Below are positions 3,493 to 43,548 of a stretch of DNA of 64,000 nt, one piece after another. Origin of the DNA: an uncultured Trueperaceae bacterium (lineage in GTDB: Bacteria; Deinococcota; Deinococci; Deinococcales; Trueperaceae). The stretch's first letter is position 1. Each line of letters begins with the position of its first letter. The stretch spans positions 128,001-192,000 of the forward strand of contig CAVSGP010000004.1 of NCBI GenBank assembly GCA_963727505.1, written 5' to 3'. The notes beneath the pieces were generated by a model that saw only the letters and a list, made by a program, of their open reading frames with translations, made no database searches and was not told the DNA's origin. A program made the position numbers and the translations under genes.

Positions 3493-3567
3493 GGCGCCGT
3501 AGCCAAGGGGTAAGGCAGAGGTCTGCAAAACCTCGATTCACCGGTTCGAATCCGGTCGGCGCCTCCA
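3493..3567 (+). tRNA. tRNA-Cys (GCA)
   Basis: Acceptor GGCGCCG/CGGCGCC, anticodon arm GAGGT-CTGCAAA-ACCTC, T-loop TTCGAAT, encoded CCA. Confidence 0.97.
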
Positions 3568-3581
3568 CCTCTTCCGACCAT

Positions 3582-3656
3582 AGGCGCGTAGCTCAGTGGG
3601 AGAGCGCTACATTGACACTGTAGAGGTCGGCGGTTCAATCCCGCCCGCGCCTACCA
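3582..3656 (+). tRNA. tRNA-Val (GAC)
   Basis: Acceptor AGGCGCG/CGCGCCT, anticodon arm CTACA-TTGACAC-TGTAG, T-loop TTCAATC, encoded CCA. Confidence 0.97.
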
Positions 3657-15464: not shown

Positions 15465-18400
15465 GTGCGCCTCACCTCCCTGTCGCTCCAGGGCTTCAAG
15501 AGCTTCGGGAATCGCGCGCTGGTCGAATTCGCTCCGGGCGTCACCGCCATCATCGGGCCCAACGGCTCGGGCAAGTCCAATCTGATCGACGCGTTGAAGT
15601 GGACCACCGGCGGCGGTCGCGCGCGGGAGTTCCGCGCCAGCGACAAGACCGACCTGATCTTCCACGGCGCCACGGGCAAGCGCGGCCTCAGCCTGGCGGA
15701 GGTCGAGGTGGAGCTTCGTGGCGACGGCCGGACCATCAAGGTCTACCGCAGCCTCGACCGCGACGGCACCACCCGCTTGCGGCTCAACGGTCGTAACGCC
15801 CGTTTCCTCGATCTCGAGGAAGCCCTGTCGGGCAGCGGGCTGGGCCGAGCGGGGGTCGCGCTCATCGGCCAGGGTGAGGTCAGCCAGGTGCTCATGGCGG
15901 ATCCGCCGAAGCTGCTGGAGTACGTCGCCGAAGTTGCCGGCGTGGGACGCATGAGCTCGCGTCGCGAGCAGACACAAGCCCGCCTGGAGACCGCGCGCGG
16001 CCACCTCGACCGGCTGCAGGACGTCCTGGTGGAGCTCGACGAGCGCTGCGTTCGCCTCGGAGAGGAGGCCGCCGACGCCGAGCGGCACGCCTCCCTGAGC
16101 GCCGAAGCGCTCCGTCTGCGCGTCACCGCCTCCCGCAGACGCGTGGACGCGCTGGAAGAGGAGATCGCGGGCCTGCAGGAGCGCCGTGCCGAGCTGACGG
16201 GAGCCATCCAGGAAGGACGCGAACGGCTTCAGGAGCTGCGTACCGAGCTCGAGAGCGCACGGCACACGCGCGACGTCAGGGAAGAGACCTACCGCAGCGC
16301 CCTGGCCGAAGCCGAACTCAAGCGCGGCGACCTTCGCGTGGCGGACGAGCGCGCGCAGCGCGCTGGCGAACGGTGGCAAGCGGCACAGGACGCCCTGGCG
16401 GCTGCGCACGAAGAGGCCCGCCGGCTAGAAGCGGGCGAGCCGCCGAGCGCTCCCGAAGGCGACCCAGCGCCGCTGGCCGAACGCGAGGCCTCGCTGAGCG
16501 AGGCGCTTCAAGGCTCCGATGCCGAGTTGGCCGAGGCGCGCGCCGCCCTCGAGGAGGCCGGCGGCGAGCTGGACCGGCTACGCGAGGCACAAGCGGCTGC
16601 CGAACGCAGTGCCGCCACCTTCGAAACGCAGCGTGCCGGACTCGAGAGCCAGGCACGCGAACTCCAGCAACGGCTGGATGCGCTCGTCGTAACGCCGCAG
16701 GAGGACCTGACGGCGCTCGAAGCCTCCGAGGCCGAGGCGCGCCGGCGCTCGGCGACGCTGGCCGCCGATCTGGAGACGGCACGCAAGCGCCTGGCCGAAG
16801 CGCATGAACGTCACGCCCACCTGGAGGCCGAACGGCAGGCGCTGGGTCGGGCGGCGCAGCGCCAGCGCGCAGCCTTCGAAGCACGGCGCGGGTACGCGCA
16901 GGGCCCCCGCAACGCCCTCACCTCGGGCATCGAAGGCGTCCTCGGCTCCGTCGGCGACCTACTCGACGTTCCGGAGCGCTTCCGCACGGCGGTGGCCGCC
17001 GCCCTCGGGCGGCGCGCCGAGTACGTCGTCGTCGATCATGCCGATACCGGGCGCAGGGTGCTGCGCTGGGTACGCGAGCACGGCGGCTTCGTCACGGTGC
17101 TCCCGCTCGACCTGCTACGCGACGACGGCCGCAGGCCCCCGCGCGAGCTGCTCGCTCAGGAAGGCGTCATCGGAGCCGCAGTCGACGTGGTGGAGGTCGA
17201 TGCGGCCTACCGTTCGGTCGCCGAGCAGCTCCTCGGCGGCACCGCACTGGTGGAGACGATGGAGCGGGCCACCGCGCTGGCGCGCGGGCGCGGGCCGCGC
17301 GCGCGGATGGTGGCACTCGACGGCGACATCCTGGAGGCGTCCGGAGCCATGAGCGGCGGGCGGCGTGGGCCGCAGTCGAGCGTGCTGGGCGCGGCTGCGG
17401 AGCTCGAGGAGGCCGAAGCGGCCGAGGAGCGTGCGAGCCGCCAGGCCGAGGTCGCCAGGGCGGAACTCGAGCGCGGGCAGCGGGACGTCCGGGAGCTGCA
17501 GGAGCGCCTGCCCGAGGCTGCTACGGCGCTGGAGGACGCGCGCACGCGCCTGGCAGAGGCGCGCGAGCGGGGCTCACGCCGGCAGGGGCTGCTCGAGGAC
17601 CTGCAGCAACGCGCCGTCGAGGTCGATCGCGCGCGCGACGCGCTGCAAGCGCCGCCCGATCCGCCGGACCCCCACCGGCTGGAGGCGGCCGCAGAAGCCG
17701 CCAGCAGCGCCGCCCAGAGCGTCGAAGACCTCCGCGACCGCGATGCCGAGCGCCGCCAGGAGCTGGCGGAGGTGCGGCAGCGTCGCCTGCTGCTGGAGGA
17801 GCGCCTGCGCTCGTACGCTTCGGCGCTCGAGCGCTTCCGGCAGGAGCGCTCCCGGGCTTCGGAGTTGCGCACCTCGATCGGTCGTCAGGAGCAGACGCTG
17901 GCGGACCTTCAGGAGGCGCTCGCCGCCGCGCAGGCCGCCCGGACAGAGGCCGAGGCGGCGCTGCCGACGGGGCTGGAGGAGGCGGAGGCTGCGCTGTCCG
18001 AGGTGCGCTCACAGAGCGACGCGTTCGAGGCGGCGTTGAACGAACTCACCGAGCACCAGGCAGGGCGCGGCCAGGAGCTCGAAGGGTGCAACGTTCAGCT
18101 CGCCCGCCGCGAGGCCGCACTCGAGCTCGCCGCCGAGGAGCTCCAGGGTTACCCCGAAGGCGCCGAGCCGCTCGAGCTGAGCGAGCGCGCCGCCAAGAGC
18201 AGGCTGCGTGAAGTCGAGACCGCCCTGGACGCGCTGGGCCCGGTCAACCACCGGGCGGCAAGAGACCTGCAGGAGTCCCGAGAGCGCAAGGAGGGACTCG
18301 AGGTCGAGGCGGTACAGGCCACGCTGGCCGTGACCGAACTGGAAGGCACGCTGGAGCGCATCGACCGCGAAACCACGGCGCGGCTGCACGCCGCGCTCGA

Positions 18401-18857
18401 ACGCCTCCGGGTCAGCTTCCGGGGACACGTCCAGCAGCTCTTCGGTGCCGAGGGTCAGGGCGACATCGACGTCGAGCATGACGAAGGCCGGCCGGTCGGC
18501 GTCCGCATCCGCCTGCAACCGCCCGGCAAGCAGACGCAATCGCTCCACCTGCTCTCGGTGGGGGAGCGAACCATGGGGGCGCTCGCTTTCCTGTTCGCGC
18601 TGATGGCCGACGGGAGCGACGGCGCGGGCCTCCCGATCGCCGTTCTGGACGAGGTCGACGCCCCGCTCGACGAGGCCAACATCCGGCGCTACTGTGCGTT
18701 CCTGGAGCGGCTCGCGAAGACCGGCACGCAGTTCGTGCTCATCACCCACCAGAAGGCGACCTTCGAGGTGGCCGACGTGTTGTGGGGGGTCACCACCGAG
18801 GACGGCGTGAGCCGGGTGTTCAGCATCCGTCGTGACGAAGTCGCTCCGGTAGGCTGA
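15465..18857 (+). CDS. smc: Chromosome segregation SMC protein
   Basis: GPNGSGKSN Walker A, long coiled coils, hinge, LDEVDAPLD Walker B/D-loop. Confidence 0.93.
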   Translation: MRLTSLSLQGFKSFGNRALVEFAPGVTAIIGPNGSGKSNLIDALKWTTGGGRAREFRASDKTDLIFHGATGKRGLSLAEVEVELRGDGRTIKVYRSLDRDGTTRLRLNGRNARFLDLEEALSGSGLGRAGVALIGQGEVSQVLMADPPKLLEYVAEVAGVGRMSSRREQTQARLETARGHLDRLQDVLVELDERCVRLGEEAADAERHASLSAEALRLRVTASRRRVDALEEEIAGLQERRAELTGAIQEGRERLQELRTELESARHTRDVREETYRSALAEAELKRGDLRVADERAQRAGERWQAAQDALAAAHEEARRLEAGEPPSAPEGDPAPLAEREASLSEALQGSDAELAEARAALEEAGGELDRLREAQAAAERSAATFETQRAGLESQARELQQRLDALVVTPQEDLTALEASEAEARRRSATLAADLETARKRLAEAHERHAHLEAERQALGRAAQRQRAAFEARRGYAQGPRNALTSGIEGVLGSVGDLLDVPERFRTAVAAALGRRAEYVVVDHADTGRRVLRWVREHGGFVTVLPLDLLRDDGRRPPRELLAQEGVIGAAVDVVEVDAAYRSVAEQLLGGTALVETMERATALARGRGPRARMVALDGDILEASGAMSGGRRGPQSSVLGAAAELEEAEAAEERASRQAEVARAELERGQRDVRELQERLPEAATALEDARTRLAEARERGSRRQGLLEDLQQRAVEVDRARDALQAPPDPPDPHRLEAAAEAASSAAQSVEDLRDRDAERRQELAEVRQRRLLLEERLRSYASALERFRQERSRASELRTSIGRQEQTLADLQEALAAAQAARTEAEAALPTGLEEAEAALSEVRSQSDAFEAALNELTEHQAGRGQELEGCNVQLARREAALELAAEELQGYPEGAEPLELSERAAKSRLREVETALDALGPVNHRAARDLQESRERKEGLEVEAVQATLAVTELEGTLERIDRETTARLHAALERLRVSFRGHVQQLFGAEGQGDIDVEHDEGRPVGVRIRLQPPGKQTQSLHLLSVGERTMGALAFLFALMADGSDGAGLPIAVLDEVDAPLDEANIRRYCAFLERLAKTGTQFVLITHQKATFEVADVLWGVTTEDGVSRVFSIRRDEVAPVG

Positions 18858-20276: not shown

Positions 20277-21266
20277 TCACCAGTCGTCGATGTCCTCGCC
20301 GATCGCGTCCTGGTCGATCTTGGCGTAGATCCTGGTGGTCTGGATGTCGGCGTGCCGCAGGTGCGCCGCCACCCGGCCGAGGTCGTGGGTCTGCCGGTAG
20401 TAGCGCGTACCGGCCCCGTGGCGCAGGCCGTGCACGCCGGCCGAGGCGTAGTCGACGCCCGCGCGCTGGCACAGGGTGCGGAAGCGCTTACGGGTGTGAT
20501 CGGTGCCCCAGGGCAAGACCCACTCCGGGTCACGCTGGCGGCGCGCCGTAGCCCCGTCCGCCCGGAGTGCCTCGAGAGCCGCGCGCAGGCGGCGCGTCAT
20601 GCTCACGCGGGCGCTCTTGCCGCCCTTGCCGGACTCCACCCTGAGCTCGTTGCGAGCCAGGTCGAGATCACGCCAGCGCAGCGCCGTCATCTCGCTGATG
20701 CGCAACCCGGCGTGCGCGCCCAGCAGCACCACGACGCGTTCGGCTGGCTGGGCCAGGTCGAGAAGCCGTTCCACCTCCTTATCGCCGTAGGGGCGGCGCT
20801 TCTCCCACGGCGGCGTCGGGTCCTTGGCGATCCGTACGTTCTCGAACGGCCGTGCCTCCGTCGCGCCCGCCCAGCGCAGCGCCCGGTAGAGCGTGCGTGC
20901 CGCCGCCAGCTTCACCTGCAGCGTCGAGGGCTGCGGCCGCTCGCCCGAGGCCGCGCCGGGCGTGGACTCCAGTCGGCGGATGTAGAGCACGCCGGCGTCA
21001 CGGGTGGGCCGGAGCAGGTTCTCGTCCTGCCAGCCCTCGAGCAGGTCCGCGATGCCGCGCCGGTAGGTGCGGAGCGTATGACGGCTGGCGCGCGAGCCCT
21101 TGGAGCCGTGCAGGAACAGGTAGGCTTCGGTGAGCGCCCACAGCTCGCCCACATCGCGGGCATTGGCGGCACGCGCGGCCCGTCGCCGGAGCTCGTCGGT
21201 CGGCAGCGAGGCCCAGCCCTCGGCGCGGCTGAGCGCGTCGCCCTGGTAGCGTTGGAGGTCGCTCAC
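20277..21266 (-). CDS. Tyrosine recombinase (Xer-like)
   Basis: Complete catalytic set: GLRISE (R), GKGGK (K), HGLRH (HxxR), LRHADI (H), TRIY (Y). Start GTG 21266 preferred over 21311. Confidence 0.93.
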   Translation of the reverse strand: MSDLQRYQGDALSRAEGWASLPTDELRRRAARAANARDVGELWALTEAYLFLHGSKGSRASRHTLRTYRRGIADLLEGWQDENLLRPTRDAGVLYIRRLESTPGAASGERPQPSTLQVKLAAARTLYRALRWAGATEARPFENVRIAKDPTPPWEKRRPYGDKEVERLLDLAQPAERVVVLLGAHAGLRISEMTALRWRDLDLARNELRVESGKGGKSARVSMTRRLRAALEALRADGATARRQRDPEWVLPWGTDHTRKRFRTLCQRAGVDYASAGVHGLRHGAGTRYYRQTHDLGRVAAHLRHADIQTTRIYAKIDQDAIGEDIDDW

Positions 21267-21319
21267 GGCGCCACCGGACGGGCGTACAGGCGGTTTCTTG
21301 GGTTCGAGCACCCCTTCAT
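21263..21319 (-). CDS. Putative leaderless uORF coupled to the recombinase
   Basis: TATGAT-6nt-ATG; MKGCSNPRNRLYARPVAP*; its TGA overlaps the recombinase GTG (GTGA). Confidence 0.4.
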   Translation of the reverse strand: MKGCSNPRNRLYARPVAP

Positions 21320-21334
21320 GTCGGCATCATAGCG

Positions 21335-21362
21335 AGACCTGATAAGACGAGTTATCAGGTTT
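21335..21362. promoter_or_regulatory. dif-like tyrosine recombinase site
   Basis: AGACCTGATAA-GACGAG-TTATCAGGTTT: 11-6-11, arms 10/11 inverted, ATAA/TTAT core as in dif. Confidence 0.75.
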
Positions 21363-22126
21363 TTTACAGTTTCGAGCACGGCCGGAATGCCCTCGACCGG
21401 CTCGGCCGTCGTGCGTCGCTATGCTTCGTCGCCCCGTGTCGCATGACGCCCGGGCGCGGCCGACCAGCCACCGGCCCGGCGGGACCGCGGGCTCCGGCCG
21501 TGGCTCTCGCCTCCGGGCGCGCCGGCGAGCGGGCGCCCGCAACGCGTCGCGCTCCCGGCCCCGGCGCCCGGCTACGACCGGCGCCGCCCGGCACCGCGCC
21601 GCCGCCGACGGAGCGGCCGTCCGCCGGCGACCGCCCACGCATGCGTCCAGCCCACATCCGCCCACGGCTGCCGACGTCCGGTCCGCGCCGGCGCGCTCCC
21701 CGGTACCACCACCCTCTGGCTGCGGTCCACCTCGAGCCGGTCCCCCACGATCTCCTCGAACCCGCCGCGGACCGCCGCGTGGCGATGGTCCCCCAGGTCG
21801 CCCGTCCAGACGCACGGTCCCCGCCTCCGCCGGCGGCCACGCGCCTTCACCGGCGTGGCGATGCCCGCCGTACGTCCCTGACGCGAAGGGCGCCACGCGC
21901 ATCGTGCCAGCGGACGCGGCATCATGGTTGGTCCCGACCGGTCTAGCTGCACGTCGACACCTTCGCTAGAACGGTCTACCTTTCACGATGCGAGGGCCCT
22001 GCGCGCGGCGCGGCGGCGCTCCGACTTCGGGGGGACGGCGTGAAGCTGCGTCGGTCGTCCGTGGCGGTGGAAGCACGTCCCATCGATTTGATAATTCCCG
22101 AGCGGGCACGGACCCCTTCTTGCCGC

Positions 22127-43134: not shown

Positions 43135-43545
<411 letters not shown>

Positions 43546-43548
43546 TAC

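Follow-up and report, generated by a model that had tools for sequence, protein, structure and literature searches.

How are chromosome dimers resolved in the bacteria around Deinococcus, and by which enzyme acting at which site? Extreme recombinational DNA repair, for which Deinococcus and its relatives serve as models, must create chromosome dimers. The question is raised by a solitary tyrosine recombinase gene and a 28-bp palindromic site just upstream of it, found in the genome of an uncultured Trueperaceae bacterium (genome G000). The window analyzed here is a stretch of 64,000 nucleotides of a 1.08-Mb contig (C4, accession CAVSGP010000004.1; the window is G000:C4:128001-192000). Judged from sequence analysis, the recombinase and the 28-bp site probably constitute a one-protein chromosome dimer-resolution module of the Xer/dif type, similar in plan to XerS/difSL. 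We favor this reading because the site is unique and of fixed orientation, is strictly linked to a catalytically complete simple recombinase, and lies at the replichore junction in three families that share no synteny around it, and also because the genome offers no other candidate enzyme and encodes an FtsK gamma domain.

The recombinase consists of a core-binding domain and a catalytic domain and has no arm-binding domain. It matches the Pfam families PF00589 (1.9e-24) and PF02899 (5.9e-7), and the catalytic hexad R189, K214, H279, R282, H305, and Y314 is invariant in an alignment of 27 homologous sequences, which bears out the original prediction of an intact R-K-H-R-H-Y enzyme. The AlphaFold2 (AF2) model, with a mean predicted local distance difference test (pLDDT) score of 84.2, is that of a two-domain simple recombinase. 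Its top Foldseek match is XerA (5hxy, 3e-11), and the next closest structures are IntI4, the Tn1549 and lambda integrases, XerH, XerD, and Cre. All NCBIfam scores fall far short of the respective Xer equivalog cut-offs: 82.4 bits versus 220 for XerA (NF040815), 79.0 versus 335 for XerC (TIGR02224), 57.0 versus 330 for XerD (TIGR02225), and 49.3 versus 267 for XerS (NF003462), the last over the C-terminal half only. The protein is thus a member of the tyrosine recombinase superfamily of the simple, Xer-like type that falls outside XerS, XerH, XerA, and XerC/D by the models tested. The automatically called open reading frame (ORF), 20277-21311 with a GTG start, was rejected as overlong: homology and a conserved GTGA stop/start overlap fix the start at GTG 21266, and the resulting N-terminus, MSDLQRYQGDAL, lines up with the beginning of the protein in homologues from other families. 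With this start the site lies 69 nt upstream of the gene, in agreement with the roughly 70 bp first estimated.

On the + strand the site reads AGACCTGATAA-GACGAG-TTATCAGGTTT, and on the gene strand AAACCTGATAA-CTCGTC-TTATCAGGTCT. Its two 11-bp arms form an inverted repeat in 10 of 11 positions around an asymmetric 6-bp center, exactly as had been read from the + strand at 21335-21362. This is the size and layout expected of a dif-type site (about 28 bp, inverted arms of about 11 bp, a center of 6-8 bp, and an A/T-rich inner core). The local G+C content of 54% marks the only stretch of the region that is so low. No further match to the 28-mer was found at up to 6 mismatches in the 3,261,185-bp genome, and neither 17-nt half (arm plus spacer) is repeated in the window at up to 3 mismatches, so that the statement that the window holds no second site stands. 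Palindromes of the 10-6-10 type with an A/T core number 26 in the whole genome, about one per 125 kb. Chance occurrence of the site is excluded. Only five of the genomic 10-6-10 palindromes have at most one mismatch, and among these is TATTATTATC-ATTCTC-GATAATGATA at G000:C1:50652, which we take to resemble a Fur-type box.

The site accompanies the gene in relatives. It was present at 13 of 13 orthologue loci (67-92% identity) as TGATAA-N6-TTATCA directly upstream of the recombinase, and the proposal of a one-protein Xer/dif-type module, for which conservation of the palindrome beside orthologues was the critical check, is thereby supported. The spacer is CTCGTC in 11 of 14 sequences and CTCGTG, CTAGTC, or CTAGCC in the others. 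Across 41 loci, the orientation of the asymmetric spacer relative to the gene is constant and none of the loci contains a second copy. The site was also found at 15 of 15 loci from metagenome-assembled genomes titled uncultured Trueperaceae, Deinococcales, or Deinococci, part of which derive from the same genomes as the orthologue loci. The recombinase adjoins the site on all 17 assessable metagenome contigs that carry the flank signature; two more such contigs stop at the contig edge, and the rest of the 80 loci are unrelated DNA of lower G+C content. A search of the 121 genomes of the family gave the core pattern in 25 and the reversed control pattern in none. Copy number, another check set out at the start, agreed: the pattern is single-copy in 24 of these genomes, and the two copies in the 25th (G017) are one site on the overlapping ends of two contigs. 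The site thus occurs once per chromosome, as does dif. By genus, the pattern was present in 8/9 genomes of g1, 5/12 of g6, 3/3 of g9, 1/1 of g11, 6/11 of g12, and 1/1 of g32, with no strict core pattern in the other genera of the family.

Two side observations arose from the metagenome searches. In one contig (L093) the recombinase gene is frameshifted after 177 codons, which makes it either a pseudogene or an assembly error. A perfect palindrome with arms as in this site, AACCTGATAACTCGAGTTATCAGGTT, recurs in metagenome contigs of 38-47% G+C (L094, L096, L097, L102, L111, L120, L122, L127, L162, and similar). Two contigs of this group that were examined (L111 and L154) are ORF-poor. As no recombinase lies near it, the palindrome is probably a repeat from the genome of an unrelated organism, perhaps a eukaryote, and the group was dropped as unrelated to the module.

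The original prediction had left two options, a chromosome dimer resolvase or the resolution or attachment (att) site of a domesticated element. The latter would make the locus a module of mobile-element or plasmid type, either an integrase with its att site or a multimer-resolution cassette like Cre/loxP, that has no chromosomal role. Sites adjacent to the gene are typical of element-borne recombinases in the portions of Le Bourgeois 2007 (PMC1914069) cited here, and 58 Deinococcus plasmids carry homologues of the recombinase, 19 of these plasmids being predicted to be mobilizable. Moreover, even close relatives differ in the DNA on the far side of the site. In contrast, the gene side keeps its synteny within the genus: BirA and a CHRD-like protein stay beside the recombinase there and in close kin only. 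Recombinase identity is 83-92% within the genus, 52-77% within the family, and 31-48% in other families, a drop with taxonomic distance that fits vertical descent. Second or degenerate copies of the site, such as the attL/attR pairs of integrative mobile elements exploiting Xer (IMEX), were found neither in the window nor in the genome nor at the 41 related loci, and viral_contigs gave no matches. The plasmid copies themselves would fit a resolution system operating replicon by replicon. Given also the conserved terminus position described below, we regard an element-type module as quite unlikely, and of the two options it is the dimer resolvase that the position favors.

The far-side DNA was inspected further. 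About 760 bp lie between the site and the next gene (window 21368-22126), with a G+C content of up to 87% and a sequence unique in the genome. No ORF in 21364-22126 has a coding pattern of G+C at the three codon positions (GC1/GC2/GC3) or a tblastn match in relatives, and the stretch contains only weak simple repeats and is not conserved in relatives; it is apparently a variable, non-coding flank. Contigs from four sediment metagenome runs of one study show that related strains diverge just past the site, with a loose end at 21368, and the same four runs gave no informative joint at the site.

A dif site is expected at the replication terminus. The original prediction had doubted such a position since the genes to the right of the site are mostly on the + strand, a doubt that the following data remove. 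The site is at C4:149,335-149,362. Strand-polar 7-mers were derived from contigs other than C4, and the most polar was GGGGGAG, with 251 leading and 78 lagging occurrences in 1.57 Mb (C9, C5, C14, C8, C2, and C4 being named). On C4 the cumulative forward-minus-reverse count of the top 30 words reaches its maximum at 151,239, on a plateau from 146,995 to 153,284. A two-segment likelihood analysis placed the change point of GGGGGAG between 146,560 and 147,737, with a 2-log-likelihood support interval of 142,992-153,285 (log-likelihood difference 22.4) that includes the site; the counts are 33 forward and 9 reverse to the left of the change, and 47 forward and 151 reverse to the right. The cumulative GC-skew maximum on C4 falls in the 140-150 kb bin, and dnaA lies on a different contig, where the skew switches from minus to plus. 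Genes show no bias toward either strand in this genome (the G-rich strand of C9 carries 52% of coding bases, and the + strand of C4 from 150 kb to the end carries 53%), and hence the word polarity is not a proxy for gene orientation and the gene-orientation caveat carries no weight. GGGGGAG is therefore a candidate FtsK-orienting polar sequence (KOPS-like word) for Trueperaceae. Complete chromosomes agree: in 9 of 9, which represent three families with no flanking genes in common in the 1.5-2 kb compared, the distance between module and dnaA is 49-55% of the chromosome. In G012 a homologue of 35% identity without this site is at 43/57%. The site thus has the replichore-junction position of dif; the GC-skew switch coincides with it only approximately.

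The other recombination genes of the genome, which comprises 3.26 Mb in 15 contigs at about 70% G+C and is 97.4% complete, do not include a competing Xer enzyme. Only two PF00589 genes are present. The second encodes a 377-residue phage-type integrase with PF14659 at G000:C4:474984-476117 (minus strand of L031, 2985-4118), which suggests an integrated element there. Genome-wide, no protein scored above the XerD cut-off and no PF00239 serine resolvase was found. The FtsK gamma domain is encoded at G000:C14:101756-101935 (86.7 bits). A second recombinase paralogue of 43-49% identity, given as 45-49% for same-genus relatives, occurs in eight relatives (L032-L039, e.g., G002:C2:42408-43439), of which seven belong to the same genus and one, G017, to a sister genus; a homologue search did not find it in G000, G003, or G004. 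Upstream of the paralogue is a conserved CATTTGATAA...TTCACA, which a 9-11-bp insert sometimes interrupts; a palindrome is absent there.

The site is also part of a promoter. The TATGAT box proposed at 21326-21331 is indeed present on the gene strand, and the site fills the -35 position of what appears to be a leaderless-type promoter of the recombinase gene. A consensus scan found no -35 hexamer at the site or promoter, and a standard sigma-70 promoter with such a hexamer was rejected for this reason. Promoters were compared at 38 loci, some of the metagenome loci being from the same organisms as the genome loci, so that the counts are not independent; the remaining six loci that do not follow the common pattern (Table 1) have CAnnnT-like box variants. 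An ATG 6 nt after the -10 box is the geometry of a leaderless messenger RNA (mRNA), and the transcription start is accordingly predicted at this ATG (21319). In Deinococcus deserti, 60% of mRNAs are reported to be leaderless (PMC4007540). Here this ATG opens an 18-codon ORF, the TGA stop of which overlaps the GTG start of the recombinase as GTGA. At 16 loci of the genus-level clade to which this genome belongs, an out-of-frame ATG at equal spacing opens an ORF of 18-51 codons that ends in (G/A)TGA, overlapping an in-frame start of the recombinase; the encoded peptides vary among these loci and are not conserved. At 15 loci of more distant orthologues, this ATG is itself the in-frame start of the entire recombinase, and one further contig is frameshifted. 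Alignment of the upstream regions of 14 orthologues gave a conserved block, GTnAAAA[AG][CT]CTGATAACT[CA]G[TC][CG]TTATCAG, followed by a small number of variable bases, TAnnnT, 6-7 nt, and ATG, whereas the sequence farther upstream could not be aligned. The conserved distal flank of the block may act as an upstream (UP)-like element, bend the DNA, or extend the sequence to which the recombinase binds.

Several observations weigh against the dimer-resolution reading. The skew of the polar words is no more than moderate, GGGGGAG having a ratio of 251:78 on the contigs used for training. A second word, GGGNAGGG, weaker in polarity (251:149), taken alone places the change point at 131-132 kb with wide support from 118 to 160 kb. 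GC skew makes no clean sign change at the site: it is about zero over 1-160 kb of C4 and does not turn clearly negative before about 170 kb, which is 20 kb past the site on its right. The genome is a draft of 15 contigs, which limits statements on its replicon structure. Among more distant homologues, only 16 of 36 loci have a 10-6-10 palindrome within 100 bp of the start by the filter used, and neither of the two loci of family f5 has a palindrome within that distance. Neither viral_contigs nor the 41 related loci yielded a phage or integrated element that carries or duplicates the site, so that no natural recombination footprint was found at it. Finally, a near-symmetric site over a promoter also looks like a plain operator.

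This last point deserves separate consideration. The palindrome could be bound by the recombinase or by another dimeric regulator without any recombination, and a real dimer-resolution site, if there is one, would then be elsewhere. Consistent with an operator, the site overlies the -35 zone and is followed directly by a conserved -10 box and start codon, the site of the sister genus (see below) overlaps the likely -10 itself, and no natural recombination product was seen in viral_contigs or at the 41 loci. The TGATAA half-sites may also resemble Fur-type half-sites. However, an operator has no reason to be placed opposite dnaA, at 49-55% of the chromosome, in all nine complete chromosomes of three families or at the switch of the polar words, nor to retain a conserved 6-bp spacer of fixed orientation. 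The site is unique in the genome and so is not the box of a regulon, and the genome has neither another dif-like candidate nor another Xer enzyme. We therefore judge an operator-only role unlikely.

It is far less probable still that the inverted repeat acts as an RNA or DNA hairpin, with the T6 on the + strand making it an intrinsic terminator or a structural hairpin. A T-run does follow a stem of about 10 bp on the + strand, and one orthologue (L013) has altered both arms in concert, but such symmetric changes are equally expected of the binding site of a homodimer. No + strand gene ends at the site, the + strand being antisense to the recombinase, and a terminator scan was negative there; the terminator reading was rejected on these two grounds. 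The gene strand has no T-run after the stem, the site is upstream of the likely transcription start, and the spacer, which would be the loop and is not needed for a hairpin, is conserved.

If the 28-bp site is a dimer-resolution site, two recombinase monomers would bind its two near-identical 11-bp arms (CCTGATAA cores), and synapsis of two sister sites would form a tetramer. Cleavage by Tyr314 is predicted at the edges of the 6-bp center CTCGTC, and two ordered pairs of strand exchanges via a Holliday junction would turn the chromosome dimer into monomers. FtsK, through its gamma domain, may gather the sister sites at the septum and probably licenses the reaction; because the site is at the replichore junction, with strand-polar G-rich words converging on it, FtsK could bring the sister sites together. 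Since the site is in the -35 zone of the promoter of its own gene, the recombinase, when bound there, probably represses transcription of its gene. Translation in this genus would run from the leaderless 18-codon upstream ORF into the recombinase via the GTGA overlap. The analysis shows sequence, conservation, copy number, position, catalytic residues, and gene content; binding to the site, exchange of strands, the part played by FtsK, the start of transcription, and autoregulation are deduced from these.

Does the system extend beyond Trueperaceae? The site covaries with the recombinase lineage, and its architecture is constant: xTAA-N6-TTAx, with arms of 10-11 bp, adjoining the start codon. 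In the sister family, GTTGATAA-N6-TTATCATC is present in 40 of the 87 genomes examined from genus g17; G200 has two copies and each of the other 39 a single one. It was found in 0 of 14 genomes of seven other sister-family genera, and a reversed control in 0 of 101. The start of the g17 homologue is 4-8 nt past the site in 18 of 19 loci, and in all 6 complete chromosomes tested the site lies opposite dnaA. Plasmids carry homologues as well. The 58 plasmid records that matched in PLSDB at E <= 1e-20 are all from Deinococcus; their homologues have 40-47% identity and reside on plasmids and megaplasmids of 8 kb to 716 kb. In MP1 of Deinococcus radiodurans, an imperfect GTGATAA-TTCAAG-TTATAC precedes the recombinase copy by about 45 nt, and pDEGR-3 of Deinococcus grandis has CCCCGGACAA-GTCTTG-TTATCCGGGG 20 nt upstream of its copy. 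That several of the plasmid homologues have imperfect ATAA-N6-TTAT sites of their own upstream suggests one recombinase-plus-site pair per replicon. We lean slightly toward a Deinococcales-wide Xer/dif system in which each replicon would have its own recombinase-plus-site pair, with the site inside the recombinase promoter.

The dimer-resolution site of the Deinococcus group has so far been undefined. A search of the open-access literature found no described Xer/dif system for Trueperaceae, Deinococcus, Truepera, or Thermus. For D. radiodurans, the cited portions of a 2026 survey (PMC13342612) state that neither polarized KOPS nor a canonical dif was confidently identified, and those of a 2022 FtsK paper (PMC9764985) list six candidate recombinases without a site, the Escherichia coli XerCD/dif system being used instead. 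The phylum Deinococcota goes unmentioned in the text and two supplements of the Kono 2011 dif survey (PMC3025954) insofar as these are cited here, and likewise in the portions considered of a 2017 review (PMC5357621) and of a 2021 recombinase classification. The present locus offers a concrete candidate: a 28-bp site, a single enzyme, and GGGGGAG, together with a terminus marker for Trueperaceae. The sibling site of the sister genus opens testing in tractable Deinococcus strains. An order-wide system, if it exists, would supply the dif that the 2026 study could not identify in D. radiodurans and would explain replicon-by-replicon dimer resolution in the multipartite, polyploid, and recombination-prone Deinococcus genomes. 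The module would also be another independent case of gene-linked single-recombinase dif modules, and bears on whether these are ancestral or repeatedly recruited.

Table 1 Features of the locus, with positions in the window unless otherwise stated, dnaA distances in complete chromosomes, and sites and loci of homologues
Feature	Position	Strand	Remarks
Xer-type tyrosine recombinase gene	20277..21266	-	GTG start, 329 aa, stop codon counted in coordinates
Upstream ORF, 18 codons (MKGCSNPRNRLYARPVAP)	21263..21319	-	ATG 6 nt past -10 box
-10-like box TATGAT (TAnnnT type)	21326..21331	-	TAnnnT, then ATG 5-7 nt later in 32/38 loci
dif-type site, 28 bp	21335..21362	.	Unique in genome, conserved beside orthologues, at polar-word change point
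Conserved distal flank	21363..21367	-	Gene strand GT plus A-run reaching into outer arm (GTnAAAA[AG])
Site/gene in G020			50.7% of chromosome from dnaA
Site/gene in G026			50.2% of chromosome from dnaA
Site/gene in G030			53.1% of chromosome from dnaA
Site/gene in G033			50.9% of chromosome from dnaA
Site/gene in G166			49.5% of chromosome from dnaA
Site/gene in G176			49.4% of chromosome from dnaA
Site/gene in G178			50.0% of chromosome from dnaA
Site/gene in G189			54.6% of chromosome from dnaA
Site/gene in G163			50.3% of chromosome from dnaA
Distant-homologue site			CCGTTGATAA-TGCATG-TTATCATCGG
Distant-homologue site			TTCCCGTTAA-TATCCC-TTAACAGGAA
Distant-homologue site			TTCCCGTTAA-GGGAAA-TTAACGGGAA
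Distant-homologue site			TTTCCCATAA-GTAAAA-TTATGCGAAA
Distant-homologue site			GGAAACATAA-TGTGTA-TTATGATTCC
Distant-homologue site			TTTCCAATAA-CGGATG-TTATGGGAAA
Plasmid homologue loci	L082 (NC_000958.1 124398-125432), L083, L084		Plus 55 further PLSDB records

Elsewhere in the window are an SMC gene of 1130 aa (15465-18857), 2.5 kb from the dif-type site and followed by the genes for BirA and the CHRD-like protein, and ordinary RNA genes at 43136-43548 and 3493-3656 (RNase P RNA class A, 252.5 bits, tRNA-Cys, and tRNA-Val).

Known single-recombinase systems provide the natural comparison. XerH/difH of Helicobacter and Campylobacter uses a single Xer protein on a largely palindromic dif with a 6-bp center. 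The recombinase resembles XerH (structures 5jjv and 5jk0) in fold (Foldseek 1.7e-7, TM 0.62), although no XerH chain was among the sequence matches at E <= 1e-5. Archaeal XerA (PDB 5hxy and 4a8e) is the best match in both sequence (phmmer 1.8e-11) and structure (Foldseek 3e-11). XerA is described as FtsK-independent, whereas the present module is bacterial and accompanied by an FtsK gamma domain and polar words, and its recombinase scores far under the XerA equivalog cut-off. The module shares with XerA/dif one recombinase and a dif of the 28-bp type, as given in the cited portions of PMC3646895. With XerC/XerD-dif, in the account of those systems taken from Kono 2011 (PMC3025954), it has in common an 11-6-11 site with an ATAA/TTAT inner core, single copy number, terminus position, and convergence of polar words, but there is one enzyme rather than two paralogues, the gene adjoins the site, and the arms are nearly identical. 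Like Cre/loxP of phage P1 and plasmid resolution cassettes, it has a symmetric site beside the recombinase gene and, by analogy, would carry out a homotetramer-type reaction. Unlike Cre/loxP, the module is chromosomal, vertically inherited, and locked to the terminus, and Cre is only a remote fold match (9e-5). The XerS/difSL system of streptococci and lactococci likewise has a single recombinase with its site directly upstream of the gene, a module at the terminus, and FtsK. Its difSL is 31 bp long with an 11-bp central region (PMC5357621, in the portions cited) and unequal arms, whereas the present site is 28 bp long with a 6-bp center and near-identical arms. The protein is also no XerS equivalog, belongs to a different phylum, and has a leaderless-type promoter with a coupled upstream ORF. 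For the difSL-xerS linkage, the cited portions of Le Bourgeois 2007 (PMC1914069) speculated on autoregulation of the promoter and on protection from element insertion; in the present module the promoter geometry displays the overlap of site and promoter directly, and autoregulation is likewise suggested.

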